Below, in pieces: positions 3,067 to 30,199 of a DNA stretch of 64,000 bases. Position numbers and translations under genes: made by a program. How positions within the stretch are numbered: position 1 is the first letter of the stretch; each line of letters opens with the position of its first letter. The stretch spans positions 18,504 through 82,503 of the forward strand of contig JAJDDW010000114.1 in the NCBI GenBank assembly GCA_029260115.1, read 5' to 3'. The notes under the pieces were generated by a model. The model was not told where the DNA came from, ran no database searches, and was given only the letters and a program-made list of their open reading frames with translations. Source of the DNA: Phycisphaerae bacterium. GTDB lineage: Bacteria; Planctomycetota; Phycisphaerae; UBA1845.

Positions 3067-4329
3067 TTAATTCAGGGTTAAAGCTTTGATGGTCTTGCAA
3101 TCTCTGAGGTATAGCTTTTGGCCAACCAAGGTGGGGACTGTCCAGGCTATGCGTTCAAGGACGCTGGCCTTGGCGTGGATGGTCACATCTTCGGGCGTGG
3201 CTGAGGCTAGGAGGAGCTGACCGTCCTCATCTAGTACGATTATCTTGTCACCGGCTAGGAGGAGCTGGGCCTTGCCGAATAAGCCTCGCTTCCGGAAGGC
3301 CATCTTCCCGGTTTTGACGTTGACGGCTGCGAAAAATGATGGGCCGTTGCCGCCGGTGGATGCGTAGATGTAATCGCCGATTCGAATGGCGCTGCCGAAA
3401 TGTATTTGCATTTTGCTATGATGCCAAAGTTCGTTGACGGTTGTTTTTCCGTCGGCCTGAGAGAGCTTTAATGCGCGACTTCCGGTGTTGTACGCGGAGG
3501 AGATGAAGAGGATGTTACCTGGGCACCAAAGGGGTAATGAAGCGTTGACGTTGTAGGAAGTTTTGTGCGGATGGTACCATAGTAGTTTCCCATTGGCTGG
3601 GTCCACAGCTACGATCTCATCGGTCATGGGAATGACGACTTGCTGCTGTTTGTCAACGTTGATGAGCAATGGTGAAGCGTATGAACATTTTACGTCCAGG
3701 CTCGACCAGGCTACTTCGCCGGTTTTTTGACGAAAGGCCATGACACCGTAGCCTTTGCCACCGACGGGAAGGATGATGGTGTCCTCAAAGGCGAGCGGGC
3801 TGGCGGAATAGCCCCACATTAATTTGTTGGCGTTATATTCTTTCGTCAAATCGTGTGACCACACAACGGCACCAGTGTTTAAGTTTAGGCAATACAGCTT
3901 TGCGGTGATGCCGACAGTGAAAACAAGATCGCCAACAATGAGTGGTGATGATCGCGGACCTACGCCGAAGCCTCTGTCTAACTCACTAAATAGCGGCGCG
4001 GGGTAAGTATGCTGCCATTTGGTTTCGCCTGTATCAGCGTCCAGCGCGACGACGATTTCATTTTCACCTTGGCGGTGCATGGTTAGTAGCATGTTTTGTG
4101 CGACGGAAATGGTGGAATAACCATCCCCAATAGGCTTAGACCAAAGCGTTTTAGGGCCTTCTTTGGGCCAGGTTTTTTTTAGTGAGGCGTCGGGGATGGT
4201 GAAATCTCGGTTGGGGCCTCCCCACTGCGACCATTGGGCACTGGCCAGCGACGAAGTTAGGCTCACGCAAAAGATTGTACATAGTAAAGTTTGATAGTGT
4301 CGGCTCGATGACATATGGTTATTTTCCAT
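3067..4329 (-). CDS. Secreted PQQ-binding-like beta-propeller repeat protein
   Basis: Signal peptide, N-terminal WSQWGGPNR motif, repeated ALDADTGETKW/CLNLNTGAVVW blades. Start placed at ATG 4329, one base after the upstream stop and behind a GGAGA. Confidence 0.85.
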   Translation of the reverse strand: MENNHMSSSRHYQTLLCTIFCVSLTSSLASAQWSQWGGPNRDFTIPDASLKKTWPKEGPKTLWSKPIGDGYSTISVAQNMLLTMHRQGENEIVVALDADTGETKWQHTYPAPLFSELDRGFGVGPRSSPLIVGDLVFTVGITAKLYCLNLNTGAVVWSHDLTKEYNANKLMWGYSASPLAFEDTIILPVGGKGYGVMAFRQKTGEVAWSSLDVKCSYASPLLINVDKQQQVVIPMTDEIVAVDPANGKLLWYHPHKTSYNVNASLPLWCPGNILFISSAYNTGSRALKLSQADGKTTVNELWHHSKMQIHFGSAIRIGDYIYASTGGNGPSFFAAVNVKTGKMAFRKRGLFGKAQLLLAGDKIIVLDEDGQLLLASATPEDVTIHAKASVLERIAWTVPTLVGQKLYLRDCKTIKALTLN

Positions 4330-4330
4330 C

Positions 4331-5545
4331 TTATTTTTTATCTCCAAAACAATAGAGTACGCCATCTTGTGTACCAATAATAAGGCAGCCTTCAGCTACG
4401 GCCGGTGAGGCCGAGATGGGTGCGCCGGCCTCAAATCGCCAAGTTTCTTTTCCTGTTTCGATATTTACGGCGTAGATGTTTCCGTCGTTCGATCCGACGA
4501 AGACGCGCTGGCCAACGATCACGGCGGAGGAATCTATTCTACCTTTGGTAGGAAATATCCATTTCATTTCCCCGGTGGCTAGGATGATCGCTCGGAGTCG
4601 TTTATCTCGACCGCCGACGATGGCAAGCTCTTCTGTGACAGCGGCGGAAGACATAAACGGGAATTGCTTGTCGGGGTCTTCAAATGTCCAGCGTCTGGCC
4701 CCGGTTTTCCAATCGACGCCGATGATTTGGTTGCCATAGGTTCCAAGGTACACATTTGAGCCGACGATGGCTGCGGAAGCGCCGGCGGGTGAGCCGATCG
4801 ATACCTCTCGAATTTTTTTTCCGCTACTGGCGTCCAGCACGTGCAAGTTTTCATCGCAGGCTACAGATAGCACGTGGTTGTCCACGATGCCAGAAGTGGC
4901 ATGAACTTTACTCTCGGTTTCAGCTTTCCAAGCTAGTGATCCATCTGCGACTTTTATGCAGTAAATGAAGCCGTCGTAAGAGCCTATGATGACAGTATCA
5001 CCGGCGACATTCGCAGATGAAATCACCTGGCCATTGGTGGCGTAGGTCCACAAGCCTTGCCCCGTTTGGACGTCCACGGCGTGAACGATGCCGCTGTCGT
5101 CGCCGAAGATGACCTTACCACTGACCACGGTGGGTGAGGATTGGATGAAATCTTTGGCGTGATAATTCCATTTCATTTTGCCGGTGTGCAAGTCTACTGC
5201 GTAGAGGTATTCATCGTCACAGCCGAAGTAAACGGTGCTATCGACAATGGCGGCGGACGAGGTAATGGCTTCTTTTCGCTTGAAGCGCCATCGCACGGCA
5301 AGCTTTTCTGGCAACTGGCTCACGGCGACGCCGGTTAGACGAGGGTTACCGCGGAACATTGGCCAGGACTGGGCGGTAGCGCGAGGCGCGACGGATGGCG
5401 ATTTTTCTACTTGGGCAAAAACTGTCGACGAGGTTATCGATATCAAAATTATGAGTGGGAGGTATACACGCCATGCGCTTCGCAGGTTCGCGTTGGCGAA
5501 TCCATTATTTGCTATGGCCGCATACTGTGTGTCGTATTTTCTCAC
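4331..5545 (-). CDS. Secreted PQQ-binding-like (BamB-like) beta-propeller repeat protein
   Basis: WPMFRGN motif and about 8 regular repeats of SSxAI...VYFGSxDxxLYAVDxxTGxxxW. Confidence 0.88.
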   Translation of the reverse strand: MRKYDTQYAAIANNGFANANLRSAWRVYLPLIILISITSSTVFAQVEKSPSVAPRATAQSWPMFRGNPRLTGVAVSQLPEKLAVRWRFKRKEAITSSAAIVDSTVYFGCDDEYLYAVDLHTGKMKWNYHAKDFIQSSPTVVSGKVIFGDDSGIVHAVDVQTGQGLWTYATNGQVISSANVAGDTVIIGSYDGFIYCIKVADGSLAWKAETESKVHATSGIVDNHVLSVACDENLHVLDASSGKKIREVSIGSPAGASAAIVGSNVYLGTYGNQIIGVDWKTGARRWTFEDPDKQFPFMSSAAVTEELAIVGGRDKRLRAIILATGEMKWIFPTKGRIDSSAVIVGQRVFVGSNDGNIYAVNIETGKETWRFEAGAPISASPAVAEGCLIIGTQDGVLYCFGDKK

Positions 5546-5563
5546 AATCGAATGCCACTTCGA

Positions 5564-6019
5564 CTACGAAGGTTTGAATCTAAGAACCAGGGCTGCGCCC
5601 ACGCCAGCCAATGCGATGCCCGCGTAGAACATCATGTGCGGAGGCTTGGCTGGTTTATTCCAGATCATTGATACAATCGTATTCATGATCGGAGCGCCCG
5701 CAAAAACTAGCGGGGCGACATAAATTGGCTTACCGCCTTGCTTGAAAGCGAACACGATCCCCAAGGCTCCGATTGCGCCGAGTATACCTGCTAAGGTAGA
5801 CAGGTTGACGCCCTTGGATGTAAATTCCCACGGCTCTGATTTGGCGAACCAGATATATGCTACGCAGGCTAAGGACACAACAAAATATGCAACGCCTACG
5901 AATAGGAACGCGCGTAGTGCGCTGTTCTTGCCTATCGCAGTTTGGCCATGATGTAGCGTGGGCACATACGCGCCCCAACAGAGGATAGTCAGGATGACAA
6001 ACATTGGCCAAAGCTTCAT
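5564..6019 (-). CDS. Small integral membrane protein, possibly DMT/EamA-like
   Basis: About 5 hydrophobic segments, ILCWGAY start motif, GGAG RBS upstream. Confidence 0.7.
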   Translation of the reverse strand: MKLWPMFVILTILCWGAYVPTLHHGQTAIGKNSALRAFLFVGVAYFVVSLACVAYIWFAKSEPWEFTSKGVNLSTLAGILGAIGALGIVFAFKQGGKPIYVAPLVFAGAPIMNTIVSMIWNKPAKPPHMMFYAGIALAGVGAALVLRFKPS

Positions 6020-6088
6020 GGGGTGCTCCTCTTGGAATTAGCTGCGAATCTCAATCTATTGTTTGCAGCGACTCTTGTATCTGTGTTA

Positions 6089-6118
6089 ATTATAGTCTGT
6101 TCTGCCGCAAAATGTAAA
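6089..6118 (-). promoter_or_regulatory. Candidate sigma70 promoter (TTTACA-N18-TATAAT) upstream of the 151-aa membrane protein gene
   Basis: Perfect -10 hexamer and 5/6 -35 hexamer in the intergenic gap. Confidence 0.4.
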
Positions 6119-6150
6119 TTGCGGTCGAGGTCAGTATGACTATCTTGGCT

Positions 6151-6176
6151 CCGCGCGGCCTGAAACTTGCGGCGCG
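6151..6176 (+). repeat. REP-like palindrome, degenerate copy 2
   Basis: CCGCGCGGCCTGAAACTTGCGGCGCG, immediately downstream of the thioesterase stop codon. Confidence 0.55.
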
Positions 6177-6182
6177 GGGGTA

Positions 6183-6602
6183 CTAGCCATTTATTTTGGC
6201 CTGCAATTTTTCTCTGATTTCATCTGGAATTATTATCGAGTGAAATTTTCCACCTTGGGTGGAACAACATACGGCCGACGATCGACCAGTGGCAATACAC
6301 ACGCCGTCTATTCGAAACTCGCACTTAAAAGAGACGGACTTGTCGGTGATTTCGGTCAAAGTGATGGCTAATTCCACATCATCTTCAAAACGAGCGGGAC
6401 GGGCGTATTCACAGCTAACGGACACGCGAGGCCAGCCAATATGCCCGTCACCGGCTGGGATATTTACGCTGATGCCCAACGATCGCCAGAAGCCGCATTC
6501 CACTTCTTCCATGTATCGAAAATAATTGGAAAAATGAACCACGCCGGCTAGGTCGGTATCGGCGAACTGAACTATTCTGGTCATTGTATAGTGATCGGAC
6601 AT
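6183..6602 (-). CDS. Acyl-CoA thioesterase, hotdog fold (4-hydroxybenzoyl-CoA thioesterase/YbgC family)
   Basis: VQFADTDLAGVVHFSNYFRYME signature and CEYARPARFED. Confidence 0.9.
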   Translation of the reverse strand: MSDHYTMTRIVQFADTDLAGVVHFSNYFRYMEEVECGFWRSLGISVNIPAGDGHIGWPRVSVSCEYARPARFEDDVELAITLTEITDKSVSFKCEFRIDGVCIATGRSSAVCCSTQGGKFHSIIIPDEIREKLQAKING

Positions 6603-6723
6603 TCTCGATTTTCCATCAAAATCGCGCCAACCTCTGATGCACGGTGGCGACGGTGTAAAGCTTGGTATCTTTACGATTCTTATTTTACTACATAACTGCG
6701 AACGACTAACTGTTTCCGTTAGT

Positions 6724-6750
6724 CAGCGCGGGCTTAAAACTCACGGCTCA
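6724..6750 (+). repeat. REP-like palindrome, degenerate copy 3
   Basis: CAGCGCGGGCTTAAAACTCACGGCTCA, downstream of the symporter stop codon. Confidence 0.5.
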
Positions 6751-6774
6751 AGTATCGTAAAGCTCCGGCCGGTA

Positions 6775-8442
6775 TCACGCCTTGCCGAAGAACTTTTCTA
6801 CTGTGGCTGTCGACGGCGGTCTTGTGATTAGCGATACCACTACCAGCGACACTGTCGAGACCGAGATGATCGTAGCTACGGGCATCATGTCTAAAAATAG
6901 ATACTCACGGTTGGCGCCATAGCCTGCTTGGGCGAACAGATAAACCCAAGCGACGGCGGTACTAATGACACAGGCGTATGCGCCAGCCGTCGTCGTGCGT
7001 TTCCAATAAAGGGCGGCTGCGACTAGTGGGAACAAGCTGGCAAATCCGCTGAAGCACCATACGCCGAGGGTGAACACACCGCCAGGGCGTGTTTGAGCCA
7101 AGAGATACGTAACGATTACAATGAAAACGACGAAGCCGCGTCCTAGTAATAGGCGCTGTTTATCTGACAGTGAGCCATCTTTGGCGTAGTGAGCCACGAT
7201 GTCGTTAGTGAAAATGCTACCAAGACAAAGGAACTGCGAATCCAATGAAGACATAATCGCGGCGAGGATGCCTGCGGTCAGCAATCCACCTAGTACCGGA
7301 CCCGTGCTGGAATCGACAAGCTTGCCGAGGACCGCGTTGGGGTTAGAAAATCCGTAAGGAATAATGGGCTTGCCGTCTATCATGGCACTGGTAGCCCATA
7401 CGCCAATCAATACGCAGGGCACCCACACGAGCATGATGAGAATGGGATGCGCGATGACGGACAGTTTAAACGATTTCGCGCTTTTCGCGGTTAACCAATG
7501 TTGAAAAAGATGCGGAAACATGCCCACGCTTAGCGGAATAAACATATACGTGAGAAACTTCAGATGGCCAATGCCATGCGGCTTAACCGGCTTGTTCGGC
7601 GCAGTGCCACGCTGGGACTCTGGCTTATTTTTCCAAGCGGCGAATCTCTTTTCATAGACTTTCACGTCGCCTTTGTAGCGGGTGAGTTGGTCATTTTCTC
7701 GCACGGTGCGGCGCAGTTTGTCGGGATTATGCTTTTGCACCATAGCTGTCGCTTCTTTCACTCCGCCGAGCTTGTCGGAAATAGCTGCGAAAGTGACGAC
7801 GCCTAATATGATAAACACAATGGTCTGAAAAGCGTTGGCCCAGGCTGTGCCGCGCACGCCGCCAAAGAAAACGTAAATCATGACGACGATACAAATTAGC
7901 GCTGAGCCATAGGCGTATGGAATAGCGCCAGCAGCACGAGCGGCTGGGCCTACACCAGCCGCGGGAAAGATGTCAGGTAATGCGCCGCCGGTTAATTTTT
8001 CGATCGTCGTGCCAGCGCCCATGACTCCGATGAGAAGGTATGGAATCACAAGGCCTACGAGGATAGGAAAAAGCAATAATCCAAAGTTGTTAGACTCAAA
8101 CCGATCTCTGAAAAACTGAATTTGTGTTGTGTAGCCAAACCGTTTGCCGAATGACCATAACTTAATGCCTATAATGAAGAAACAAGCGGAATGAATGATG
8201 CCAGACCAAGAGGCCATCTTGCCGTATACGCCGATGCCATCTTTAAAAGTGGCGCCGGTCGAGCCGACGAGGGCGAAGGCAGTCATGGTCGTTCCGAACA
8301 ACGACATGAGCAGTAAAAATGGGCCGATGCTGCGGGATGCTAGGAAATAGTCTGCCGATGTTCCTTTGAACAATCGGCTACTGAAAACCCCGAGAATCAA
8401 GAGCAAGCCGAGATAAGCTAAGATAATGAGAAGTTGTGTCAT
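6775..8442 (-). CDS. Sodium:solute symporter family protein
   Basis: DYFLASRSIG, FFGGVRGTAWANAFQ and AAIMSSLDSQ motifs; about 13 TM segments. Confidence 0.93.
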   Translation of the reverse strand: MTQLLIILAYLGLLLILGVFSSRLFKGTSADYFLASRSIGPFLLLMSLFGTTMTAFALVGSTGATFKDGIGVYGKMASWSGIIHSACFFIIGIKLWSFGKRFGYTTQIQFFRDRFESNNFGLLLFPILVGLVIPYLLIGVMGAGTTIEKLTGGALPDIFPAAGVGPAARAAGAIPYAYGSALICIVVMIYVFFGGVRGTAWANAFQTIVFIILGVVTFAAISDKLGGVKEATAMVQKHNPDKLRRTVRENDQLTRYKGDVKVYEKRFAAWKNKPESQRGTAPNKPVKPHGIGHLKFLTYMFIPLSVGMFPHLFQHWLTAKSAKSFKLSVIAHPILIMLVWVPCVLIGVWATSAMIDGKPIIPYGFSNPNAVLGKLVDSSTGPVLGGLLTAGILAAIMSSLDSQFLCLGSIFTNDIVAHYAKDGSLSDKQRLLLGRGFVVFIVIVTYLLAQTRPGGVFTLGVWCFSGFASLFPLVAAALYWKRTTTAGAYACVISTAVAWVYLFAQAGYGANREYLFLDMMPVATIISVSTVSLVVVSLITRPPSTATVEKFFGKA

Positions 8443-8681
8443 GCTTTGCCTCCGTTTTTAGAAGCTCGTGCATTTACCGGTTGGACATCATCCAATTCGC
8501 TTGGCCAACAGTATACTACGGCTAGTGCCCACAAGATGCCGGAGGCGAGTGATATGCCCGCATGATAGGCTAGCCCGATGGGTACGAAACCGAATACTAA
8601 TGTTTCGGAATTATCCCACCACCACCAATCGTGATGAAGGAACGCGAGAAGAATGATTGAGCCGTATATGATTTTTTTCAT
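8439..8681 (-). CDS. Small 2-TM symporter-associated protein (DUF3311-like)
   Basis: MKKIIYG...HHDWWWWD...VFGFVPIGLAYH; ATGA overlaps with both neighbours. Confidence 0.8.
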   Translation of the reverse strand: MKKIIYGSIILLAFLHHDWWWWDNSETLVFGFVPIGLAYHAGISLASGILWALAVVYCWPSELDDVQPVNARASKNGGKA

Positions 8682-9940
8682 GTGGTTTCCGTACCCGTTT
8701 TCAAATCGCTCGGCTGGGGGAGCGTAATCCATTGTCGCATGGTGTCAAACATTTGCGCGACTTCATCGTTAAAGACGTCGCCAATCAGGATTCGCACCAA
8801 GTGGTCGCGGTGGTGTGGGAATTCCTTCATAAATTGGCCGAAACTAAAATCTCGATTATAAAAAGCTTCGACTAGTTGCCGGATCATGTTCATGCCGTGT
8901 AGCAATTCCGGCGCAAAGCAACCCAGCTTGTTCCCTGATAAATCCTTATCGCTTAACCCTTGATGAATGGCGTCGGCGGCTAATTCTCCGCTTTTTAGTG
9001 CCAGCATAATGCCAGACGAATAGACGGGATCCATAAAGCCAAAGGCGTCCCCGATGAGTACCCAACCGTCCCCGGCCATTTGATCGGCGCGGTAGGAAAA
9101 GTCTGTGGTAACGAAGCCTTTGGTGATACGCTCAGCTTTTTCAAGTCGACGCAAGATGCCTGGACACTTCGCGATTTCCTCGTCGAGCGTGACTAAGGGA
9201 TCGTTGCCGCGGCCAGTACAGAGATACGATGGCGGCGCGACTACGCCGATACTGGTGACGCCATTGCAAAGCGGGATATACCAGAACCAGCCATCCCTTT
9301 TTGGCATGTGGATGATGATCGTCGCCCCACTATTGCGCCCTTCATCGCGATACGCCCCTTTGTAATAGGCATAAATCGCCGCGTTTTTGAATTTTGGGTC
9401 AGGGCGGCGCAGTTTCAATTGCTTAGCTAGGATGGAACTCATGCCGGAGGCGTCTACAACTACCTTGGCGAAAGTATCTTCGGAACCGGCATCGGTCACG
9501 ACACGAACGCCAACTGCTTTGCCCCCTTCAAAGAGGACTTCTTTAACACGTACGCCTTCACGCACAATCACTCCCTGTGAAATGGCGTTGTCTAGCATCA
9601 TTCTATCGAATACATCTCGCTCTACCTGCCATGTTATCGAGCAGGGACTGTCATCGCGATCGGTAAAGTAGAATGGTTGAGAGTCCTTGCCGGACGTCGA
9701 GACGAATTGCACACTTTCCTTACGGGGGAAATTTGAAGCTTCCATCTTTTCGAGCATGCCCAATCTTTTGAAGGTCCAATACGTTTGCGGCATGAGCGAC
9801 TCGCCGATATGCGGTCGCGGAAACAATGACTGTTCAAGCACCATCACGTTTCGACCTTGCTGGGCTAAAATGGTCGCGGCTGTCGCACCGGCTGGTCCGC
9901 CGCCAATTATCGCACAATCGTAATCGGCTGTATGGCTCAT
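8678..9940 (-). CDS. FAD-dependent oxidoreductase, flavin-dependent halogenase-like
   Basis: GGGPAG, FPRPHIGESL, FPRK (candidate catalytic Lys), GWFWYIP (WxWxIP) and GDAFGFMDPVYSSG (FxxPxxSxG). Confidence 0.82.
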   Translation of the reverse strand: MSHTADYDCAIIGGGPAGATAATILAQQGRNVMVLEQSLFPRPHIGESLMPQTYWTFKRLGMLEKMEASNFPRKESVQFVSTSGKDSQPFYFTDRDDSPCSITWQVERDVFDRMMLDNAISQGVIVREGVRVKEVLFEGGKAVGVRVVTDAGSEDTFAKVVVDASGMSSILAKQLKLRRPDPKFKNAAIYAYYKGAYRDEGRNSGATIIIHMPKRDGWFWYIPLCNGVTSIGVVAPPSYLCTGRGNDPLVTLDEEIAKCPGILRRLEKAERITKGFVTTDFSYRADQMAGDGWVLIGDAFGFMDPVYSSGIMLALKSGELAADAIHQGLSDKDLSGNKLGCFAPELLHGMNMIRQLVEAFYNRDFSFGQFMKEFPHHRDHLVRILIGDVFNDEVAQMFDTMRQWITLPQPSDLKTGTETT

Positions 9941-10551
9941 GGTTGATCGTCACCTTTATCCGAGAGGCTAATATTATGATCTTGGCTAACATTGAGTACG
10001 ACTTCAAATAGTTCGATGGCGGGCTGATGATGGCAATAGATAATGCCAATGCGGCCAAAGCTTTCCTGGGTGACGACAGGCTCAGTGCTTTTCCAAATAG
10101 CCGCTTCTGGCGAGAGCTGTAGCAGCCAACATGGTTCTATGCGACGAAGCACGTTGTGACTAATCAGAATATCACCCAACGGGCGTTGCTTGGCAAGTAT
10201 CTCCTCGCGCACTTCCGTTGACAGCGCATCAAGGTCTAGACGAACGATACCGTATTCAACAATGGTGTTTGAACTTGGCAAGGTCAACACAATCTCTCTG
10301 GTATAGCAATGCTCATCAAGATGGTATCGCAATACGCGCAGCGCGACAGATTCGCCGTGGTAATTTTGGAGCGTGGTGGTCATGTGGTTTTGATGCGTGA
10401 GTAGCTCGCGCACTGTGCGGGGTAATGACTTGTCGTCAACCGGTTGAATACCGTCAAGGCACATCGGCTGATCGAAGAAAGGCTTCGCGAGAAGAGACAA
10501 GGCCGACAGCGCGTTGTCGCAACTGGTGATGTGGTCAGGCCGGGAGATCAC
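9937..10551 (-). CDS. Chorismate pyruvate-lyase-like protein (UbiC/Rv2949c/UTRA fold)
   Basis: LLTHQNHMTTTLQ, YTREIVL and RPLGDILI match the LL...sxT.xL / REvxL / PLGxxL pattern of chorismate lyases; translationally coupled on both sides. Confidence 0.6.
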   Translation of the reverse strand: MISRPDHITSCDNALSALSLLAKPFFDQPMCLDGIQPVDDKSLPRTVRELLTHQNHMTTTLQNYHGESVALRVLRYHLDEHCYTREIVLTLPSSNTIVEYGIVRLDLDALSTEVREEILAKQRPLGDILISHNVLRRIEPCWLLQLSPEAAIWKSTEPVVTQESFGRIGIIYCHHQPAIELFEVVLNVSQDHNISLSDKGDDQP

Positions 10552-11861
10552 GCTAAGTTGTCACCTTGAAATTGTGGTTCAAAAAAAGCAGGCAACAGCC
10601 CATCCACCCGAAGCAAACCTTGGCGAGACAGATGTAGCTGCTGGCCGGTGACCGTTGCGAAACCTTTGTCGATTAGCGAGTTAACGACGTCTGCATAAAC
10701 ATCCAATACGTCAACATCGAATTTAGCCTGAAAATAAGGGGCGTCGATGCGGCCTAATTTAAGTTGTAATACAAGCTCACGAATCAAAGCTTGGCGCGGT
10801 GTCATTTGCATCGCGCGAGATAGTGGCAGTTCACCGGCTTGTAGCTTGCCGATATAGTCTTCCCATTTGTCGGCGTTTTGATAATGCACACCTTGGAAGT
10901 GAGAAAAGGAGGCTACGCCCATGCCAATCATATCGGCGCCGTGCCATATGGAATCGCGATAAACAAAGCCCGAACCAACCGACGGCTTGACTAGCGTATA
11001 GCCACTGGACACCACATATCCGGCCGCTTCAAAAGCTCGAAAAGCGTAGTCCGTCCAGGCACGCTTGGTGGGCCAATCTGCCACCGGTGAAGCAGTGCCT
11101 GATTGCGTCATTTCATGAGAGATCGTTGTGTTGCGGGGCAGCTCCATTTGATAAATGGTGACGCTGTCCGGGTCGAGTGCGACAGCTTTGCTGACCGTAT
11201 CCTCCCAAGTCTTCGTGGTATCGCCCACCATGCCAGCGATGAGGTCGATGTTAATTTGATCAAATCCAACTTCGCGCGCCCAATCGTAAGCGCGGATAAT
11301 CTCTGGGGATTTATGCGCCCGGCCATTAAGCTCTAACACGTGGTCGTCGAAATGTTCGACGCCTAAACTTAAACGTGTCACGCCGATGGCTTTGATGGTT
11401 TCAAGCTTGCTTTTTTTCAGCGTGCCCGGTTCACATTCAAAAGTTACTTCTTTCGCTTTTTCCCAGTTCCAATATTTTGCGATACGATCGACAAGACGCT
11501 GTAACTGGGCCTCGCTCAAGAACGAGGGAGTTCCGCCGCCAAAGTATACGAATTCAAAGTGACGATCTTTTAGCCCTGCCCGGTCGGCGTACAGGGCGAC
11601 CTCTTGACCAAGGGCGTCGAGATACGTTTCGACTTCGTTGGAATTCTTGTCGGTGTAAACGCGGAAGTAACAAAATTTGCATCGTTTTCTACAAAACGGA
11701 ATATGAATATACAACCCGACGGGCGAGGTATCGGTTAAGGGTTTATCCATAAAGTCATTGGCCTTGGAAATATGCTTAGCCGACCACTCTGAGAACGGTG
11801 GATAGTTAGCGACGAAATAGGTGCCGACTTCAGTTTTATCGTTAAGAATTTCCAAATCCAC
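10548..11861 (-). CDS. HemN-like (class C-type) radical SAM protein
   Basis: LYIHIPFCRKRCKFCYF (CxxxCxxC), YFGGGTPS, RLSLGVE, INIDLIAG. Confidence 0.9.
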   Translation of the reverse strand: MDLEILNDKTEVGTYFVANYPPFSEWSAKHISKANDFMDKPLTDTSPVGLYIHIPFCRKRCKFCYFRVYTDKNSNEVETYLDALGQEVALYADRAGLKDRHFEFVYFGGGTPSFLSEAQLQRLVDRIAKYWNWEKAKEVTFECEPGTLKKSKLETIKAIGVTRLSLGVEHFDDHVLELNGRAHKSPEIIRAYDWAREVGFDQINIDLIAGMVGDTTKTWEDTVSKAVALDPDSVTIYQMELPRNTTISHEMTQSGTASPVADWPTKRAWTDYAFRAFEAAGYVVSSGYTLVKPSVGSGFVYRDSIWHGADMIGMGVASFSHFQGVHYQNADKWEDYIGKLQAGELPLSRAMQMTPRQALIRELVLQLKLGRIDAPYFQAKFDVDVLDVYADVVNSLIDKGFATVTGQQLHLSRQGLLRVDGLLPAFFEPQFQGDNLA

Positions 11862-11971
11862 AGTGTCGGCTCGCTTGGTTCTGTCATTTCGTCAGGGTTA
11901 CCGCCGTCCTGCATCCAATAATGGCCATGGCGCGATTGGCGGACGATTTCGCTTCCTTACATTCCTTAATC

Positions 11972-11999
11972 AGTATAGCGACTTGGCGAAGCGACTCAA
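11972..11999 (-). promoter_or_regulatory. Candidate internal sigma70 promoter (TTGAGT-N16-TATACT) upstream of the radical SAM gene
   Basis: Lies in the 200-bp gap that separates two translationally coupled gene blocks. Confidence 0.45.
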
Positions 12000-12059
12000 T
12001 GTAAAATCTTGTGGACCAACGTATTGGGACGTAGTCGTTACATGCCCCAGATGAGAATC

Positions 12060-13214
12060 TCAGGCGAAGGCCGATGCGTAGATTTCTAGAAGCTCCTCTT
12101 CGCCTACGGGTCGAGGATTAAAGCCTGCAGTCCACTGTTTACCAGCTAGGGCAGCTAAAGCGGGTAGACGGCTGCGATTAACACCGCAATCGTTTAAACG
12201 TGTCGGCAGGCCGCTGTTTGCTAGAAATTTTGATAACTGCTGAGCAAGCAATTCTGGATCATCTACGAGATCTGCGTAGACATTATTTCCTTTAGCACAA
12301 TTATAACGCACCACATGCGGCAGTAACAAACCCACCGCTTGGCCATGGACGATACCACATTGCGATGTCAATGGATTGGCACACGCATGGGCGGCACCTA
12401 ACATGGACTGCTCTATAGCTGCCCCCGCGAGGTGCGCACCTAGCAACATATTCGCCCGCGCTCGATCATCGCCTGGCGATACAATTACAGTTCCATAAGA
12501 CGAGGATAATAACAGCCAAGCCTGTTTAGACAATTCTCGTGACACGTCGTTGCGGCGCGTCGTGCCTGCGGTCTCGACCGCGTGGGCTATGGCATCTATT
12601 CCAGCGGCAGCAGCCACTGCGGCCGGTTGGCTGCTGGTGAGTTGAGGATCGAGAATGGTAAGTCTGGGGCGAAGTCCACCCTCCTTAGGCAAACGACGAT
12701 CTCCGCATACCATCTTTTGTTTAGAATCTACGTCACTAATCAGGGCGAACGATTGGGCTTCGCTACCCGTACCAGCCGTCGTGGGAACAAGTATCGTTGG
12801 CAGCAATGCGTCGGTCGCTTTACCCTCCCCCCAATAATCCGCTATCGTTCGTCCGCCCGTAAGAATCAGGTTGATTCCTTTGGCGCAGTCCATCGCGCTA
12901 CCACCACCCAAACCCACGATGAAGTCTATCGGATGCTGCCGCGCTAATGTCACACCGGCTGCGACGTTATCCGTGGTGGGATTTTCGTGCGTGCCATCGA
13001 AGAGAAAAACATCTACGCCGGCGTCCCGTAAAGATTGTCTTGCCCGATCAGCGTAGCCTGCACGGACTATGCCGGGGTCGGTCACCAATAAGGCACATGT
13101 CGCTCCCTCTTCTCGTGCGCATTGACCTAAATCATCCAGCAATCCATGGCCAAATAGGACGCGCACCGGTGAGTGGGTGAGGATAGCTGGCAGCGTGAAC
13201 GGATCGGAGGTCAT
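12060..13214 (-). CDS. Iron-containing alcohol dehydrogenase
   Basis: GLGGGSAMDCAK, PTTAGTGSE, DAIAHAVE, AHAC and VHG metal-ligand motifs. Start set to ATG 13214 (ATGA overlap with the upstream gene). Confidence 0.92.
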   Translation of the reverse strand: MTSDPFTLPAILTHSPVRVLFGHGLLDDLGQCAREEGATCALLVTDPGIVRAGYADRARQSLRDAGVDVFLFDGTHENPTTDNVAAGVTLARQHPIDFIVGLGGGSAMDCAKGINLILTGGRTIADYWGEGKATDALLPTILVPTTAGTGSEAQSFALISDVDSKQKMVCGDRRLPKEGGLRPRLTILDPQLTSSQPAAVAAAAGIDAIAHAVETAGTTRRNDVSRELSKQAWLLLSSSYGTVIVSPGDDRARANMLLGAHLAGAAIEQSMLGAAHACANPLTSQCGIVHGQAVGLLLPHVVRYNCAKGNNVYADLVDDPELLAQQLSKFLANSGLPTRLNDCGVNRSRLPALAALAGKQWTAGFNPRPVGEEELLEIYASAFA

Positions 13215-14632
13215 GCGGCTGACTCGACTTGGAAAGCCCGCTGACGATAAAGATGCTCGAACAGGTTGCCCTCGTGGGGCTGGTCCCAACTTAGCTGATA
13301 AGTAGGGATCGCGCCGATATTCAATCGATCTATATGAGAACAAGCCATCAAAGTTTTCTTGAATGACTCGTCATGTGTGATGGCTGTGGCAACAAGCGTT
13401 GGGCCTATTGCAGTAGGCATTTGATCGATCGGACACTCAACGACGGAGGCGAACGGAAACAAAAATTCCCGGTTGGAAAGTGGATGATCTCGATCGTCAC
13501 AGTGAATAATCGTCGGTAACAAATAAGCACACTTTCCCAGGTGCGCGAGTCGATCCTGTCCTCGTTGCTTTTGGGTTAGGTCTGTCGCGCCGTCAATGTT
13601 CAAATCGTTATCGATCATGGCAGAAATTTGCGTGGCGACATTTGCATTAGCAAACGCTGCAATCTGAGCGTCTGCATGGTCCGAAGGTAACGCTTGTATA
13701 GCTGAAAGTTTTTTCGCCAGCGCTTCTGCGATCTCTCGCCCATGCCTTGGCGTCCAAACACCGGAAGCATTGATGCAAGATCGGCCTCCATTGGCCGCGA
13801 TGGAGGCCGCGATCATGTCGATATGCTTTTCCCAATCGTCAACCTCATCCTCGCCGAACAATATTTTGCTAAAGCCAGGCCCATGCACTTCGACACGCGG
13901 ATCGTCTTTATACGGCTCGGTCGTAGCGGAACCTCCGAAGAGCATGGAACGATCTACCTGACGAAGTAATTCACTTGCACCAGCATGATCTGTCGGATAA
14001 AAACCGAAAGCTTCCTTGGGGACGCCGGCTTCGATAAACGCTTGAATCATACGGTATGGCGTCCAAGGTTCCTCGCGACCGGGCTTGAGCATGATCGGCG
14101 CTTTGAGTGCGATCGCCGGTGCCCATAATGAATGTACACCGGGCGAGTTGCTTGGCAACACGGCGCCGAATACACGGCCATCTCTGAAGAAACTGAGCGT
14201 GCCACCAGCGCTAGTTCCATGACCAATATCTAGAATGGATAGATCAAAGCCCCGCGTCAGACCGCGAATAACAGTTTCAATATTGCTTAAGATGTTGTAA
14301 ATCTTCGAGGCGTTGTGGCGGCAATATGTGATCGGCATGCCCGTCGTGGCGGAGAGCTGTTTCACATAATCATCGAACGATTGCTTCGAATCGCCAAGCG
14401 GCAGTGAGGCTGTCATGAATAATTCTGCGGCGTGGCGAGACATTTCCATAAGCTCAGCCACGCTAAATCCTTCAAGCACATCGTCGGCTAAGAGACTTTT
14501 GTCGCGACCGATGACGCCGCTGTTTACTTGGCTAACCGAAGCGACTGGCTCTCCGGTGGCATGATGAAGAATATCTACTTTTGTCATGCTCTCGTAAGGT
14601 TGACCGAGTCGCAGTGCGGGGATGTGTAACAT
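13211..14632 (-). CDS. Aldehyde dehydrogenase-superfamily protein, GriD/EhpG-like acyl reductase component
   Basis: VLPSNSPG, LKPG, GGRSCINAS (catalytic Cys), EFLFP. The ELGG motif is replaced by VHGPGFSK. TAATG-coupled to the adenylating enzyme gene. Confidence 0.8.
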   Translation of the reverse strand: MLHIPALRLGQPYESMTKVDILHHATGEPVASVSQVNSGVIGRDKSLLADDVLEGFSVAELMEMSRHAAELFMTASLPLGDSKQSFDDYVKQLSATTGMPITYCRHNASKIYNILSNIETVIRGLTRGFDLSILDIGHGTSAGGTLSFFRDGRVFGAVLPSNSPGVHSLWAPAIALKAPIMLKPGREEPWTPYRMIQAFIEAGVPKEAFGFYPTDHAGASELLRQVDRSMLFGGSATTEPYKDDPRVEVHGPGFSKILFGEDEVDDWEKHIDMIAASIAANGGRSCINASGVWTPRHGREIAEALAKKLSAIQALPSDHADAQIAAFANANVATQISAMIDNDLNIDGATDLTQKQRGQDRLAHLGKCAYLLPTIIHCDDRDHPLSNREFLFPFASVVECPIDQMPTAIGPTLVATAITHDESFKKTLMACSHIDRLNIGAIPTYQLSWDQPHEGNLFEHLYRQRAFQVESAA

Positions 14633-15738: not shown

Positions 15739-15828
15739 TGAAAAATTCCTTAACCAATCAAAAACATTACAATAGCCTTATTGGACGCGCTTGGATGCGA
15801 GTAACACATAGCTGCCAACCTACGCAAC

Positions 15829-19585: not shown

Positions 19586-19726
19586 GATGATCGTTTTACT
19601 CCCGACAGCTTCGTAGCCGTCTTTGAATTATCCTGACTACTGTCCCTCTACGAGGGCTGATATTTTTCTTTGGTTGGCCAATTAGGTTTCATCGCAATCT
19701 AATACATCACTATTCAATACATATTG

Positions 19727-21031
19727 TTACCCGGAACGGTTTGTATGAACAAGTCGCTTGGCCTTCATATCGAACCGTGGCAATGTATCAGCCTTGACCG
19801 AAGCGACGTCGGGGCGAAATAACAGTTTATCCCGCACCTTATTGGCGATTCGATCTTCCAACCCGGCTACCATAGCCGAACTTATAGTCTCTATCTCAAT
19901 ACATAAATTGCAAATGCCGCCACTATGGTCAGCTATCAAGCGAAATTCCGCGACTTCGGAAAACTGACGAATGATAGCCTCGATCGCAGAAGGGAACACG
20001 TTATTGCCGCGAATAAAAAGCATATCATCAATACGCCCCTGAATCCCGCCTTCTAACCTAGCGAAACACCGGCCACAATCACATTGATCGCGTGTGAGAA
20101 CGACCAAATCGCCCGTTCGATATCGAATGACGGGGCTGGTGGATCTGCCCAACGTGGTCAATACTAATTCACCGGGCTGACCGTCAGCGACAGCCGTTTG
20201 CGTATCCGCATCGACGACCTCCGCGATAAATTCAGTTTCGATAACATGAACACCGCCCGGCGATTCGACACACTCAAAGCCCCACGCACCAGCTTCAGTC
20301 ATACCCGCGTGATCGAAAATCCTTGCCCCCCAGCCAGTCTCGATGCGCTGCCGAACGGCTGGAATGCTGCCGCCCGGCTCGCCGCCAACAATAATCATGC
20401 GCACAGCCGACGATGATAAATCGATCGACTCCTCAGAGGCGACATCTACCATGCGCATCGCGTAAGTCGGCGTGCAGCAAATGACCGTCGCGCGATTGTC
20501 TAAAATGTATTGCAAACGAGCCTTGGTTGTCATGCCGCCGGCAGCTAATACCCTATTGCCTAACATCTGCGCCGCATCGAAGGCCATCCAAAAACCTATG
20601 AATGGCCCAAACGAAAATGGAAACACAACGACATCGTCGTCTCGAAGACCTGCCGCCCTAAATACGATACTCCAGCACGTCTTGCACCAGGACCACGATT
20701 CCTCGCTATCAAGCCAGCGCAAAGGCTGCCCGCTTTTCGTACCAGACGTCTGATGTAATCGAACGCAATCACTCAACGCACACGAATGATTCGTACCATA
20801 AGGAGGATGAGCATCAATATCTGCCTGAATCTCCGATCGGGTCGTAAATGGCAAATGACTATACGAGTCTGAAAGCGGATCAAACGAAATGCCGCCGAGC
20901 TTGTGTTGATAAAATGGATTGTTCGCCCGCACGACATCCAGCAGCGCAGCTAGCTTGCGTCTTTGAAGTTGTTCGATCGAATCTCGATCCAACGTCTCTT
21001 GTTCAGCGCAATAATAAGGCATACGCGTCAA
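19727..21031 (-). CDS. Phenylacetate--CoA ligase family (PaaK-like) protein
   Basis: LHQTSGT, HAGMTE, RYRTGDL, GRIDDMLFIRGNNVFPS, LPRFDMKAKR. Confidence 0.9.
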   Translation of the reverse strand: MTRMPYYCAEQETLDRDSIEQLQRRKLAALLDVVRANNPFYQHKLGGISFDPLSDSYSHLPFTTRSEIQADIDAHPPYGTNHSCALSDCVRLHQTSGTKSGQPLRWLDSEESWSWCKTCWSIVFRAAGLRDDDVVVFPFSFGPFIGFWMAFDAAQMLGNRVLAAGGMTTKARLQYILDNRATVICCTPTYAMRMVDVASEESIDLSSSAVRMIIVGGEPGGSIPAVRQRIETGWGARIFDHAGMTEAGAWGFECVESPGGVHVIETEFIAEVVDADTQTAVADGQPGELVLTTLGRSTSPVIRYRTGDLVVLTRDQCDCGRCFARLEGGIQGRIDDMLFIRGNNVFPSAIEAIIRQFSEVAEFRLIADHSGGICNLCIEIETISSAMVAGLEDRIANKVRDKLLFRPDVASVKADTLPRFDMKAKRLVHTNRSG

Positions 21032-21265
21032 CTCTCAGCAACATCGGCGAACTAGGCAACACCCGCAATGGTCGGCAATCTGTCCACCACTTACGAACAA
21101 TTATCCATCTTCCCATTATCAGGCTATTATGGCAACGACCAACGAGTGTCTCATTGTGTAATTTTTCCTCACTACGCAGTAAGTTAACGAGACTCACAAC
21201 CAATGTGACATTCGTGATACTTGTTTACTAGCTGCTTTCCGGCATGTCTGGTTATGATGTCACAC

Positions 21266-22594: not shown

Positions 22595-22633
22595 CCTTAT
22601 CTAAGCGAACGAATCGTAACAGGACGAACCCTT

Positions 22634-23308: not shown

Positions 23309-23318
23309 GAACGTCTGC

Positions 23319-26714: not shown

Positions 26715-26764
26715 CGTAATTCGCTCATTGAAACATCATTCTTCTACAAAGGAACGGCCAGAAA

Positions 26765-27145
26765 ATGGAACAGCAAAAACCAAAAATCTTAGACGTCGGG
26801 CAATGCGACCTAGACCACGGAAACATTTCTCGCATGTTACAATCGTCATTGCAAGCTGATGTCGATCGAGCGCACAATATGTCGCAGGCCTTGTCAGCCA
26901 TTCGCGACCACGATTACAACCTTGTACTCGTGAACCGCATCTTCGACGCCGACGGACAGGAAGGTCAGGAACTTATTAGCCAAGTCAAAGAGGCTTCTTT
27001 CGGTAAATATGTTAAAATTATGCTGGTCAGCAACTTCGATGACGCGCAAGATGCAGCCATAGCGCTCGGCGCGGTACGAGGCTTCGGGAAAAATGCCATT
27101 GGCGAGCCAGCGACGATCGAGCTACTTCAGGCGTCAATTACCTAA
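26765..27145 (+). CDS. Single-domain CheY-like receiver protein, degenerate
   Basis: Receiver topology KILDVG...YNLVLVNRIFDADGQEGQELI...IMLVS...GAVRGFGK. Confidence 0.72.
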   Translation: MEQQKPKILDVGQCDLDHGNISRMLQSSLQADVDRAHNMSQALSAIRDHDYNLVLVNRIFDADGQEGQELISQVKEASFGKYVKIMLVSNFDDAQDAAIALGAVRGFGKNAIGEPATIELLQASIT

Positions 27146-27232
27146 CGCCTACCCACCAGGCAGAGTAGCCATCACCGTTAACGGCACATACAATTGACCT
27201 AACAGAGGTAATGTTATCTGGGAGAATGCAAT

Positions 27233-27805
27233 ATGGCCACGAGAAGAATATTATTGAATGTAGTCTTAGCATCACTTGTTTTCGGTTGTGCCGCACAAAC
27301 CCTGATGGCAGACGAAACAGGAAAGACGAAACAGAACATCGAGAATAAGCCCTCAACAGCGACCGATCGCTCACAACTCGAAAAGAAATTCGAGTCATTA
27401 CTTTCGAATGCTGTACTTGAGGGCTTGTGGCAAATGACTGGAGAAGGCGGATTGCAAAGCAAGCTGCCTCTCACGACGCCAAGACCAGAACGATACACCA
27501 TCGTCAGCGCCAGCAAAATCGGTGAAAACGATTGGCTTATACAAGCACGCGTCGAGATTGCCGAAGACAAGGATGTAACGATCCCGGTTCCAGTGCGCGT
27601 CCTCTGGGCCGGAGATACGCCGGTGATCACGCTAGACGAAATCGCCATTCCCATCCTGGGCACGTATTCCGCCAGAGTGATGATGCACAGCCAATTTTAT
27701 AGCGGCGTATGGTGGTCCTACGCCAAGAATTACGGCGGCACCATGGCTGGTCGAATCATCAAAGCTGCGCCCCGCGGCGCAGCTTCAGACCAAGACCATA
27801 AATAA
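27233..27805 (+). CDS. Secreted hypothetical protein
   Basis: N-terminal signal peptide and beta-rich mature part; GGAG upstream of the start. Confidence 0.7.
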   Translation: MATRRILLNVVLASLVFGCAAQTLMADETGKTKQNIENKPSTATDRSQLEKKFESLLSNAVLEGLWQMTGEGGLQSKLPLTTPRPERYTIVSASKIGENDWLIQARVEIAEDKDVTIPVPVRVLWAGDTPVITLDEIAIPILGTYSARVMMHSQFYSGVWWSYAKNYGGTMAGRIIKAAPRGAASDQDHK

Positions 27806-30016: not shown

Positions 30017-30199
30017 CACAACACCTCTGATCATTTTGATGTCTTCTTGCACAAAGTCTATTCCAAAAACCGCCAAGCCAACCAACGGGCGCTATGGCCT
30101 ACCAACACCCGATTCCAGCAGGAAAGCATACCAAATAAATAGACCCATGCGTAGTAGTGGGGGAAACCTTAACAATTATGGCGGGAAATTATTGCCCGA

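Follow-up and report, generated by a model that had tools for sequence, protein, structure and literature searches.

A widespread gene set of Planctomycetota and Acidobacteriota combining an EhpF-like reductase pair, a halogenase-radical SAM block, an FtsX-type ABC transporter and BamB-like propellers

Findings

We describe here a set of about twenty genes located at positions 3067 to 27805 of a 64,000-nucleotide stretch of DNA (the window) from a Phycisphaerae bacterium of the phylum Planctomycetota (assembly GCA_029260115.1, contig JAJDDW010000114.1), a set which recurs, in various arrangements, in other planctomycetes and in Acidobacteriota. The core common to the two phyla consists of a gene pair encoding an EhpF-like adenylating enzyme and an aldehyde dehydrogenase (ALDH)-like partner, a GT4 glycosyltransferase, an ATP-binding cassette (ABC) ATPase, an FtsX-type permease of about 1130 amino acids (aa) and BamB-like beta-propellers, together with a HemN-like radical S-adenosylmethionine (SAM) enzyme, a flavin-dependent halogenase, a PaaK-type ligase and a thioesterase. 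The system is widespread and made of parts from known families; as a whole it is undescribed in the literature searched (which largely omits subscription journals), where we found no account of this gene combination. Since the same families recur across genera, classes and a second phylum while their flanks do not, which goes beyond chance, we are confident that these genes form one functional system. The original prediction, made from the window alone, implied that the genes should occur together in other genomes, and this is borne out in both Planctomycetota and Acidobacteriota.

Among 301 sampled Planctomycetota genomes, 57 carry an orthologue of the EhpF-like protein (E ≤ 1e-60), 52 one of the halogenase (E ≤ 1e-90) and 87 one of the FtsX permease (E ≤ 1e-80). 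The halogenase is present in 52 of the 57 EhpF-positive genomes and in none of the 244 EhpF-negative ones (all 52 halogenase-positive genomes are EhpF-positive), and the permease in 54 of the 57 as against 33 of the 244. Even within families, patchiness is the same for EhpF and halogenase (1/3 in f12, 1/2 in f15, 5/15 in f28 and 1/6 in f38).

At closer range, a search of 41 related genomes found the EhpF-like protein in 24 (E ≤ 0.001), 22 of these having a match at E ≤ 1e-150. Eleven loci were fetched from other genera and families of the same order. The 14 larger genes of the minus strand all stand in the same order in three of these (L015, L017, L022); a fourth (L020) keeps 13 genes in a stretch that ends 1 kb past the gene for propeller PQQb, and L018 and L021 keep most of them. 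Other loci show less: L023 is devoid of the radical SAM and halogenase genes and of the gene for a 204-aa protein that lies between them, L016 has neither the ALDH-like gene nor that of the iron-type alcohol dehydrogenase (Fe-ADH) at this position, the part from PaaK to Fe-ADH is all that L013 and L014 show, and L019 shows the EhpF-like/ALDH-like pair only. Nineteen loci were fetched from other planctomycete classes and families, and in five of them (L034, L036, L037, L038, L043) 14 to 15 of the families, GT4 and ABC included, lie on one strand in another order. Genes for GT4, thioesterase or EamA-like transporter, ABC and FtsX are found directly downstream in L028, L033 and L039, and six of the 19 show only the EhpF/ALDH pair, with or without Fe-ADH. 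Among the single-contig complete genomes that carry the system (G110, G196, G213, G310), G110 has the set dispersed in three groups, one with the EhpF/ALDH pair, one with genes for the sodium:solute symporter (SSF), thioesterase, ABC, FtsX and EamA-like protein, and one with Fe-ADH, PQQb, radical SAM, 204-aa protein and halogenase; G310 has the first two of these sub-clusters. In five genomes of families f94 and f99 (G223, G256, G288, G303, G272) EhpF orthologues occur twice, once within a full cluster and once in a bare pair (L039, L040).

For counts of individual genes we used only loci flanked on each side by at least 6 kb, namely 9 in the order, 15 in the phylum and 46 in the genome_contigs set. 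The EhpF-like and ALDH-like genes are adjacent in 8/9, 14/15 and 42/46 of these (64/70). As a control, the flanking genes glnS and gdh were found in none of the 9, 15 or 46 loci.

The extension to a second phylum came from a contig scan with the EhpF-like protein alone, in which 583 of 600 candidate stretches were confirmed; the best 80 loci were used, and these comprise close relatives only. They include many Acidobacteriota (Blastocatellia, Pyrinomonadaceae, Bryobacteraceae, Vicinamibacterales), with 68-73% identity. The acidobacterial operon reads EhpF-ALDH-GT4-ABC-FtsX (about 1130 aa)-propeller, the propeller after FtsX being PQQa-like. Because the 46 genome_contigs loci end at 10 kb, their presence counts are lower bounds: ALDH-like in at least 42, GT4 in at least 35, ABC in at least 27 and FtsX in at least 24, with GT4 directly following the ALDH-like gene of Acidobacteriota in 35 of the 46. 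The divergent arm that carries GT4, ABC and FtsX in the window, which had been taken from the start as part of the system, does belong to it, and in other genomes these genes are co-directional with the enzymes. Variable inserts (DUF433, an acetamidase-like gene) were also seen between GT4 and ABC in acidobacterial loci (L066, 13950-16203).

Orthologues of the halogenase (43-48% identity) and of the radical SAM enzyme (52-57%) are present in all five acidobacterial genomes examined; in four of them the two genes adjoin each other, and in the fifth each is on a short contig of its own. At the four adjacent loci a PaaK gene lies beside them in three cases, a thioesterase gene in one, an EamA-like gene in two and genes for propellers like those of the window in two, and one of the loci (L136) has a major facilitator superfamily (MFS) transporter in place of the SSF transporter. 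Genes for TonB-dependent or outer-membrane beta-barrel proteins were noticed near this acidobacterial block (L135, 12821-15991; L136, 2558-4342).

The EhpF-like protein of the window is nearer to the acidobacterial copies, at the identity given above, than to those of other orders of its own class (G133, G176, G212; 53-56%); its identity is 63-91% within the order and 53-67% across the phylum. A quick tree united the copies of its own order, those of Acidobacteriota and those of pair-only planctomycetes in a clade of 100 rows (Shimodaira-Hasegawa-like approximate likelihood-ratio support 95) that leaves out L036-L038; this tree is effectively unrooted, its distant outgroup rows being scattered on long branches. 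Read from the sequences, this pattern suggests that the EhpF-like gene has been transferred between phyla.

The reductase pair

Residues 28-368 of the 368-aa protein align to residues 27-369 of EhpF (a chain of 369 aa; PDB 3hgu/3l2k, E 7e-44). The protein has the motif TGGSTGRPK at residue 100 and consists of an AMP-binding core only, with no AMP-binding_C match, so that it is without the C-terminal ANL subdomain. Its 473-aa partner is a divergent ALDH whose Cys286 and Asn162 do not vary among 12 sequences. A predicted complex of the two reached an interface score (ipSAE) of 0.71 (0.71-0.73 in three runs), compared with 0.09 for the best control; the mark set for this score is reached by 58 of 80 solved complexes and by 2 of 110 mismatched pairs. 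Contacts agree at 100% between runs, with a partner predicted local distance difference test value (pLDDT) of 90-91, and these models support the view that the two proteins bind each other. The idea of an EhpF/EhpG-type pair, proposed from the window, therefore stands on full-length EhpF homology, on an ALDH-like partner with an invariant cysteine and on a predicted complex. The Fe-ADH gene accompanies the pair in 8 of the 9 order loci and 11 of the 15 phylum loci.

A scan of 1.84 billion representative proteins gave 1503 members of the EhpF-like family at E ≤ 0.001 and 278 at E ≤ 1e-30. Some are fusions in which a class-III aminotransferase (P0204) or a Zn-ADH (P0227) precedes the EhpF-like domain, and these architectures fit a conversion of acid to aldehyde followed by an onward conversion. 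The N-terminal part of another member, P0237 (687 aa), is unexplained. More distant paralogues (29-35% identity to the EhpF-like protein), which have none of the ALDH-like, GT4 and ABC genes as neighbours, were set aside as another branch; such a paralogue was seen in L024-L027 (genomes G003, G002, G038 and G034).

Halogenase, radical SAM enzyme and associated proteins

The 420-aa flavoprotein was flagged as a halogenase from its WxWxIP motif, and both its structural matches and its motifs in 29 sequences agree with this. The best PDB match is 8zop (230 bits; no paper on this structure was found in the literature searched), followed by PltA, ChlB4, Mpy16, CndH, Bmp2 and CmlS, and the scores against solved carrier-protein-dependent halogenases and CmlS are 164-230 bits over most of the length. 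It is not CmlS itself, scoring 203.8 bits against the equivalog model NF033113 with its cut-off of 900. In the motif set, which comprises the window protein and 28 orthologues, acidobacterial ones included, Lys74 is present in 29/29 and aligns with the lysine of the matching PltA segment; we take it to be the catalytic lysine of flavin halogenases. The motif WFWxIP is found in 28 of the 29, L136 having WFWYVP instead, and the second flavin adenine dinucleotide (FAD) motif GDAxxFxDP in all of them. The GxGxxG site reads GGGPAG or GAGPAG in 26, the alignments of the remaining three beginning past it. No features of dehalogenase families were seen in this flavoprotein.

The assignment of the 437-aa protein as a HemN-like radical SAM enzyme is confirmed by Radical_SAM (85 bits) and HemN_C (28.9 bits), both above cut-off, and by its CxxxCxxC motif (CRKRCKFC at residue 57). 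Its PDB matches are HemN (132 bits) and the methyltransferase NocN (100 bits). It falls short of the NCBIfam model for HemN (TIGR00538, 191.2 bits with a cut-off of 324.95), and likewise of the cut-offs of HemW, HutW, HemZ and STM4012.

The 204-aa protein, whose gene always lies between the radical SAM and halogenase genes in planctomycete loci, has no Pfam or NCBIfam match, and its profile hits the PDB only at AF1396 (2nwi, E 0.088), with a shared R-x-P-[LI]-G-x-I-x-x-x-H stretch. Its AlphaFold2 model (pLDDT 85.5), submitted to Foldseek, is best matched by the same DUF98 protein AF1396 (E 1e-8, template-modelling (TM) score 0.75), then by E. coli chorismate lyase (1g81, 1fw9; E 3e-5) and then by UTRA domains. 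As modelled, it has the chorismate-lyase fold, and we call it a putative chorismate lyase on the basis of this fold. The chorismate lyase of the original prediction is thus upheld as to the fold, and is not upheld as a general component, for the gene was found only in planctomycete loci and does not belong to the cross-phylum core.

Concerning the two remaining enzymes, the PaaK-type ligase scores below the cut-offs of all NCBIfam PaaK and FlxY models and has as its best PDB match the PaaK-like ligase 4r1l (202 bits), while the thioesterase best matches 5wh9 (61 bits), a structure named 4-hydroxybenzoyl-CoA thioesterase (CoA for coenzyme A). In other genomes the thioesterase gene adjoins ABC/FtsX or PaaK. 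No match to a nonribosomal peptide synthetase (NRPS), a polyketide synthase (PKS) or a carrier protein appeared in Pfam scans of the window proteins, in line with the NRPS/PKS-free character noted at the outset.

Propellers and transporters

The four propellers (PQQa to PQQd) each have an N-terminal hydrophobic leader ahead of the first blade, from which we read that they are secreted, and all match Pfam PQQ_2. They had been described as pyrroloquinoline quinone (PQQ)-like, a label that they deserve in name only. We tried and rejected PQQ dehydrogenases as an identity, since the scores against TIGR03075 are 37-76 bits (cut-off 480) and PF01011 matches short stretches only. PQQc is the best conserved of the four: its columns average 70% identity over 10 orthologues, and many residues of its loops are invariant. 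Its AlphaFold2 model (pLDDT 77) superposes best on BamB (TM 0.74-0.80) and less well on the PQQ/lanthanide dehydrogenases PedH, XoxF and sorbose dehydrogenase (TM 0.38-0.54). This fold, together with the sub-cut-off dehydrogenase scores, leads us to call the propellers BamB-like. They are not BamB orthologues: scores against TIGR03300 are 58.5-165 bits with a cut-off of 285.2, the highest being that of PQQb, which exceeds the cut-off (133) of Beta-prop_ACSF4. PQQd is present in 8/9 order and 11/15 phylum loci, and PQQb adjoins Fe-ADH or the radical SAM gene in other classes; PQQ_2 propellers form a large paralogous family, so that tblastn assignments among them are loose. The C-terminal part of PQQd (about 300 aa, residues ~440-745) has no Pfam match.

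The GT4 protein is below the cut-off of all NCBIfam models, and its PDB relatives are PimA, PimB', BshA, MshA and a tetrahydrobiopterin glucosyltransferase. Its N-terminal ~250 aa are poorly matched by models, and the open reading frame (ORF) starts with TTG, so that the true start is uncertain. The ATPase scores 262.6 bits against LolD in NCBIfam (cut-off 307.75), 220 against YbbA and 210 against MacB. From its hydrophobic segments, the 1131-aa permease would have two periplasmic regions, at residues ~39-523 and ~773-1012 (about 485 and 240 aa); it has no PDB sequence match and no MacB_PCD match in Pfam, and no gene for a membrane-fusion protein was found among the cluster genes. The SSF transporter has about 12 hydrophobic segments, and the small DUF3311-like protein encoded directly upstream is likely to be its partner. 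The 151-aa protein (5564-6019), at one point a candidate chorismate lyase, was rejected as such: it is an EamA-like membrane protein with four hydrophobic segments, with no Pfam match and with a score of 0.98 in the ESM Atlas to clusters named "putative EamA domain-containing protein". Its gene recurs in planctomycete and acidobacterial loci.

Proposed pathway and alternatives

Taken from end to end, a chain leading from an aromatic acid to a halogenated, reduced, glycosylated and exported product is a tentative proposal, to which we give somewhat less than even chances, its chemical steps being drawn from protein families and neighbourhood. The position of the chorismate-lyase-fold gene between those of the radical SAM enzyme and the halogenase points to 4-hydroxybenzoate in planctomycetes, which would most likely be made from chorismate by the 204-aa protein; elsewhere the acid would be imported by the SSF or MFS transporter or made elsewhere. 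The PaaK-type ligase would convert the acid to its CoA thioester (aryl-CoA), on which the halogenase and the HemN-like enzyme would act, the latter probably by C-methylation or similar one-carbon chemistry. Relatives of this halogenase act on phosphopantetheine-tethered substrates, and CoA would here replace the carrier protein; the contiguous radical SAM-halogenase-PaaK-thioesterase block of Acidobacteriota suggests such tailoring on a CoA thioester. The hotdog thioesterase would then free the tailored acid, the EhpF-like enzyme adenylate it, and the ALDH-like protein take the acyl group on Cys286 and reduce it with NAD(P)H to the aldehyde, which Fe-ADH could carry on to the alcohol. GT4 would glycosylate the product, and the ABC ATPase with the duplicated FtsX permease (type VII, MacB/YbbP-like), perhaps together with the EamA-like protein, would move or present it in the periplasm, where three or four BamB-like propellers would be its partners.

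Several observations weigh against this proposal. No chorismate-lyase-like gene was found at the acidobacterial loci examined, including the place between the radical SAM and halogenase genes, which means that the acid may not be 4-hydroxybenzoate everywhere, and even in planctomycetes the eight orthologues of the 204-aa protein gave no Chor_lyase or DUF98 match in Pfam at E values up to 10. Fe-ADH is found in only 7 of the 46 genome_contigs loci. The closest solved halogenases mostly use carrier-protein-bound substrates, and there is no carrier protein in the cluster; the chemistries of HemN-like enzymes are several, and ours is below each specific NCBIfam cut-off. No halogenase was found in five of the 57 EhpF-positive genomes (G107, G197, G282, G295, G323; 87-99% complete) and no FtsX in three (G163, G261, G268), all these exceptions together being 83-99% complete; the genomes without a halogenase and the several pair-only loci indicate that the reductase can exist without the tailoring module. 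The genomes are moreover related, so that Fisher values overstate the significance of the phyletic pattern. Binding of the propellers to the permease or to the product is a proposal drawn from their co-inheritance.

The alternative that survives best, and which we nevertheless consider unlikely, is that the system makes an envelope lipid or glycolipid: a fatty or other hydrophobic acid would be reduced to an alcohol by the EhpF/ALDH-like pair and Fe-ADH, glycosylated by GT4 and extracted by the type VII ABC transporter out of the inner membrane towards the outer one, with the propellers as periplasmic or outer-membrane partners and with the halogenase and radical SAM enzyme tailoring the chain. 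Such a route would have a parallel in DevBCA, which exports the heterocyst glycolipid, and the ATPase does score against models of DevA as well as LolD and YbbA. The cross-phylum operon EhpF-ALDH-GT4-ABC-FtsX-propeller contains no aromatic-specific gene; lipid glycosyltransferases (PimA, PimB') are among the GT4 relatives, the propeller fold is BamB-like, an EamA-like half transporter is present, and YbbAP pulls hydrophobic compounds out of the inner membrane, according to the accessible part of PMC12646458. This reading has to face the fact that the nearest characterised relative of the adenylating enzyme is EhpF, a protein linked to an aromatic acid, that the ligase is of the PaaK type and the thioesterase is closest to one named for 4-hydroxybenzoyl-CoA, that planctomycete copies have a chorismate-lyase-fold gene between those for the radical SAM enzyme and the halogenase, and that Pfam scans of the cluster gave no fatty-acid, polyketide or prenyl enzyme.

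In a second alternative, the product would be a shuttle or cofactor between periplasm and cytoplasm, a halogenated benzyl alcohol or aldehyde, or its glycoside, that is exported, oxidised or used by the propellers, re-imported by the SSF or MFS transporter and reduced again by the EhpF/ALDH-like pair with Fe-ADH, much as in the chlorinated anisyl alcohol cycle of white-rot fungi. This has the merit of giving a place to an importer, two export-type transporters, an acid/aldehyde reductase pair and secreted propellers that are all co-inherited, and the conservation of PQQc is high for a scaffold. Furthermore, the 3,5-dibromo-p-anisic acid of a planctomycete, described in the accessible part of a preprint (10.1101/723874), is a bromine analogue of the chlorinated anisyl compounds made by fungi. 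We think it improbable all the same: the propellers have no full-length PQQ dehydrogenase match, a fold nearer to BamB and no redox cofactor site that we could identify; the GT4 step has no clear place; and pqqC (TIGR02111) was not found in the 94%-complete genome of the window, a search in which control genomes gave no match either. A more specific version can be imagined, in which a halogenated, methylated hydroxybenzyl alcohol, aldehyde or glycoside would be delivered by the type VII ABC transporter to cofactor-less propellers, as a diffusible redox shuttle or as a non-PQQ prosthetic group, in a new periplasmic system shared by both phyla through gene transfer; we would call this distinctly unlikely.

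We give a still smaller probability to a catabolic or detoxifying route for imported (halo-)aromatic acids, proceeding by SSF import, CoA ligation, thioesterase action and reduction. We do associate the importer, PaaK-type ligase and 4HBT thioesterase families with aromatic-acid degradation, but the flavoprotein keeps the halogenating lysine and WxWxIP and shows no dehalogenase features, no ring-cleavage, beta-oxidation or dehalogenase genes were found in the cluster by Pfam scans, and GT4, the ABC/FtsX exporter and the chorismate-lyase-fold gene point to synthesis and export. Lastly, that these are unrelated neighbours joined by descent and not by function is scarcely credible: gene order within the order may be simply inherited, and propeller paralogy loosens the tblastn assignments, but other classes keep the gene content in a rearranged order, complete genomes retain the set even where its parts are dispersed, the second phylum splits it differently, the phyletic pattern is nested (52/52 versus 0/244) and the flanking genes never recur.

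Gene content of the locus

The ORF list agrees with the layout first described for the window, 15 co-oriented minus-strand genes and a divergent arm of five (Table 1). Fourteen minus-strand ORFs of 139-745 aa span 3067-21031, and the 97-aa ORF upstream of the SSF gene brings the co-oriented total to 15; the true start of its DUF3311-like product is probably an internal Met near 8681. The overlapping stops and starts (ATGA, GTGA, TAATG) mentioned in the original prediction are present as well, and six junctions have them. PQQd and PQQc overlap by 8 nucleotides, the EhpF-like and ALDH-like genes by TAATG, the radical SAM and 204-aa genes by GTGA, the 204-aa and halogenase genes by ATGA (9937-9940), and the DUF3311-like and SSF genes by ATGA. 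At the sixth junction, the ALDH-like stop and the Fe-ADH start overlap by ATGA provided that Fe-ADH starts at 13214, and for this reason we placed its start there and not at 13343.

Two genes of the divergent arm call for a comment. The receiver-like protein, which by eye has an Asn at the expected phospho-acceptor Asp position, had been counted as a member of the system, and this we abandon, since its gene is not conserved (0/9, 0/15 and 0/46 loci; 0/70). A homologue of the 190-aa protein adjoins the system in L015 and L033 only, which makes it an occasional member. Beyond the system, the window encodes a 234-aa MORN-repeat protein (29381-30085, minus strand) and a 1020-aa thermolysin-like M4 peptidase with FTP propeptide, MAM-like and dockerin domains (30200-33262, minus strand).

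Table 1. Genes of the system and of its divergent arm in the window, with the evidence for each assignment
Product	Position	Strand	Evidence
Propeller PQQa, 436 aa, start uncertain	3067..4377	-	Pfam PQQ_2 82.5 bits; leader
Propeller PQQb, 404 aa	4331..5545	-	Pfam Beta-prop_ACSF4 209.9 bits, PQQ_2 159 bits
EamA-like half-size membrane transporter, 151 aa	5564..6019	-	ESM Atlas match 0.98
Hotdog 4HBT/YbgC-type acyl-CoA thioesterase, 139 aa	6183..6602	-	Pfam 4HBT_2, 4HBT
Sodium:solute symporter (SSF) transporter, 555 aa	6775..8442	-	Pfam SSF 138 bits
DUF3311-like small membrane protein, 97-aa ORF	8439..8732	-	Pfam DUF3311 27.3 bits (cut-off 30)
Flavin-dependent halogenase, PltA/CndH/Bmp2-like, 420 aa	8678..9940	-	PDB 8zop 230 bits
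Chorismate-lyase/DUF98-fold protein, 204 aa	9937..10551	-	Foldseek on AlphaFold2 model
HemN-like (class C) radical SAM enzyme, 437 aa	10548..11861	-	Pfam Radical_SAM, HemN_C
Iron-type alcohol dehydrogenase, 384 aa from ATG at 13214	12060..13214	-	Pfam Fe-ADH, ADH_Fe_C
ALDH-like reductase partner, 473 aa; EhpG/GriD-type by position	13211..14632	-	Pfam Aldedh 53.8 bits
EhpF/GriC-type adenylating enzyme, 368 aa	14632..15738	-	PDB EhpF 3hgu/3l2k, E 7e-44
Propeller PQQc, 508 aa	15829..17355	-	Pfam PQQ_2
Propeller PQQd, 745 aa	17348..19585	-	Pfam PQQ_2 146 bits; N-terminal leader
PaaK-type aryl/acyl-CoA ligase, 434 aa	19727..21031	-	Pfam AMP-binding, AMP-binding_C_2
GT4 glycosyltransferase, 457 aa	21221..22594	+	Pfam Glycos_transf_1 99 bits
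LolD/MacB/YbbA-type ABC ATPase, 224 aa	22634..23308	+	Pfam ABC_tran
Duplicated FtsX-type permease, 1131 aa	23319..26714	+	Pfam FtsX, two stretches
Receiver-like protein, 126 aa	26765..27145	+	Response_reg 24.3 bits (cut-off 30.2)
190-aa protein, N-terminal hydrophobic segment	27233..27805	+	no family match

Significance and comparison with known systems

Soils, sediments and waters are rich in Acidobacteriota and Planctomycetota, two phyla in which the majority of conserved gene sets lack an assigned function. Here, a true flavin halogenase signature belongs to a widely inherited system, seen in 57 of the 301 planctomycete genomes and in many acidobacterial metagenome-assembled genomes, and not to a sporadic antibiotic cluster. 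If a halogenated aromatic compound is indeed made, both phyla could be a large unrecognised source of organohalogens; the system would also give a first functional context to the many BamB-like "PQQ-repeat" propellers of these phyla, to an unusually large type VII permease and to EhpF/GriC-type two-protein reductases outside antibiotic pathways.

The original prediction stated that no characterised pathway has this gene combination. Of the set as a whole we found no description in the literature searched, and the statement has to be qualified by a partial precedent, the gene pair baaA/baaB, whose role is proposed, with no knockout, in the accessible part of the only report that we found on BaaB and dibromo-p-anisic acid, a preprint of 2019 (bioRxiv 10.1101/723874). 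According to this part, Planctomycetales strain 10988 makes 3,5-dibromo-p-anisic acid, for which baaA (chorismate-lyase-like) and the neighbouring baaB (flavin halogenase) are the proposed origin, by a route from chorismate to 4-hydroxybenzoate and then to a ring-halogenated product, the methyltransferase being unclustered (10.1101/723874). The resemblance, as far as the accessible text describes the two genes, is that in both cases a chorismate-lyase-like gene adjoins a flavin halogenase gene on one strand of a planctomycete genome, with no NRPS or PKS. Unlike baa, of which two genes are described there, the pair is here within about 20 genes, and the likeness is one of description and not of comparison with the BaaA and BaaB sequences. 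The set adds a radical SAM enzyme, a CoA ligase, a thioesterase, a reductase pair, an alcohol dehydrogenase, GT4, three transporters and four propellers.

EhpF/EhpG (griseoluteic acid of Pantoea) and GriC/GriD (grixazone of Streptomyces) are two-protein aryl carboxylate reductases that belong to antibiotic clusters (phenazine or aminophenol) in Proteobacteria and Actinobacteria; the literature that we found on them deals with antibiotic clusters or biocatalysis only. Like EhpF/EhpG, the system has a full-length EhpF homologue with no C-terminal ANL subdomain, whose gene is translationally coupled to that of an ALDH-like partner in which the catalytic cysteine is conserved, the likeness to EhpG and GriD resting on gene position and not on sequence comparison. 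Unlike those pairs, the one described here goes together with GT4 and a type VII ABC transporter, and its identity across two phyla is 68-78%, far above what is typical for a secondary-metabolite enzyme.

The halogenase keeps the FAD motifs, the lysine and the WxWxIP motif of PltA, Mpy16, Bmp2, CndH, ChlB4 and CmlS. It differs from the PltA type in that no carrier protein, NRPS or PKS is nearby, and in that its gene is paired in two phyla with that of a HemN-like radical SAM enzyme.

The export machine resembles YbbAP-TesA, LolCDE-LolA, MacAB-TolC and FtsEX-EnvC in combining a LolD/YbbA/MacB-like ATPase with an FtsX permease that has large periplasmic regions, and in being co-inherited with secreted proteins that are candidate partners, here the BamB-like propellers. 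For YbbAP-TesA, the accessible part of PMC12646458 describes how a type VII ABC transporter passes compounds extracted from the membrane on to a dedicated partner protein in the periplasm. Unlike these type VII systems, ours has a single duplicated permease of about 1130 aa, with no MacB_PCD match and no membrane-fusion protein nearby, and cytoplasmic biosynthetic enzymes belong to the same set.

The propellers, lastly, share PQQ_2 repeats with BamB and with PQQ alcohol dehydrogenases, and PQQc superposes on BamB. They are larger than BamB (404-745 aa) and, unlike it, are co-inherited, by three or four, with the enzymes of the system.

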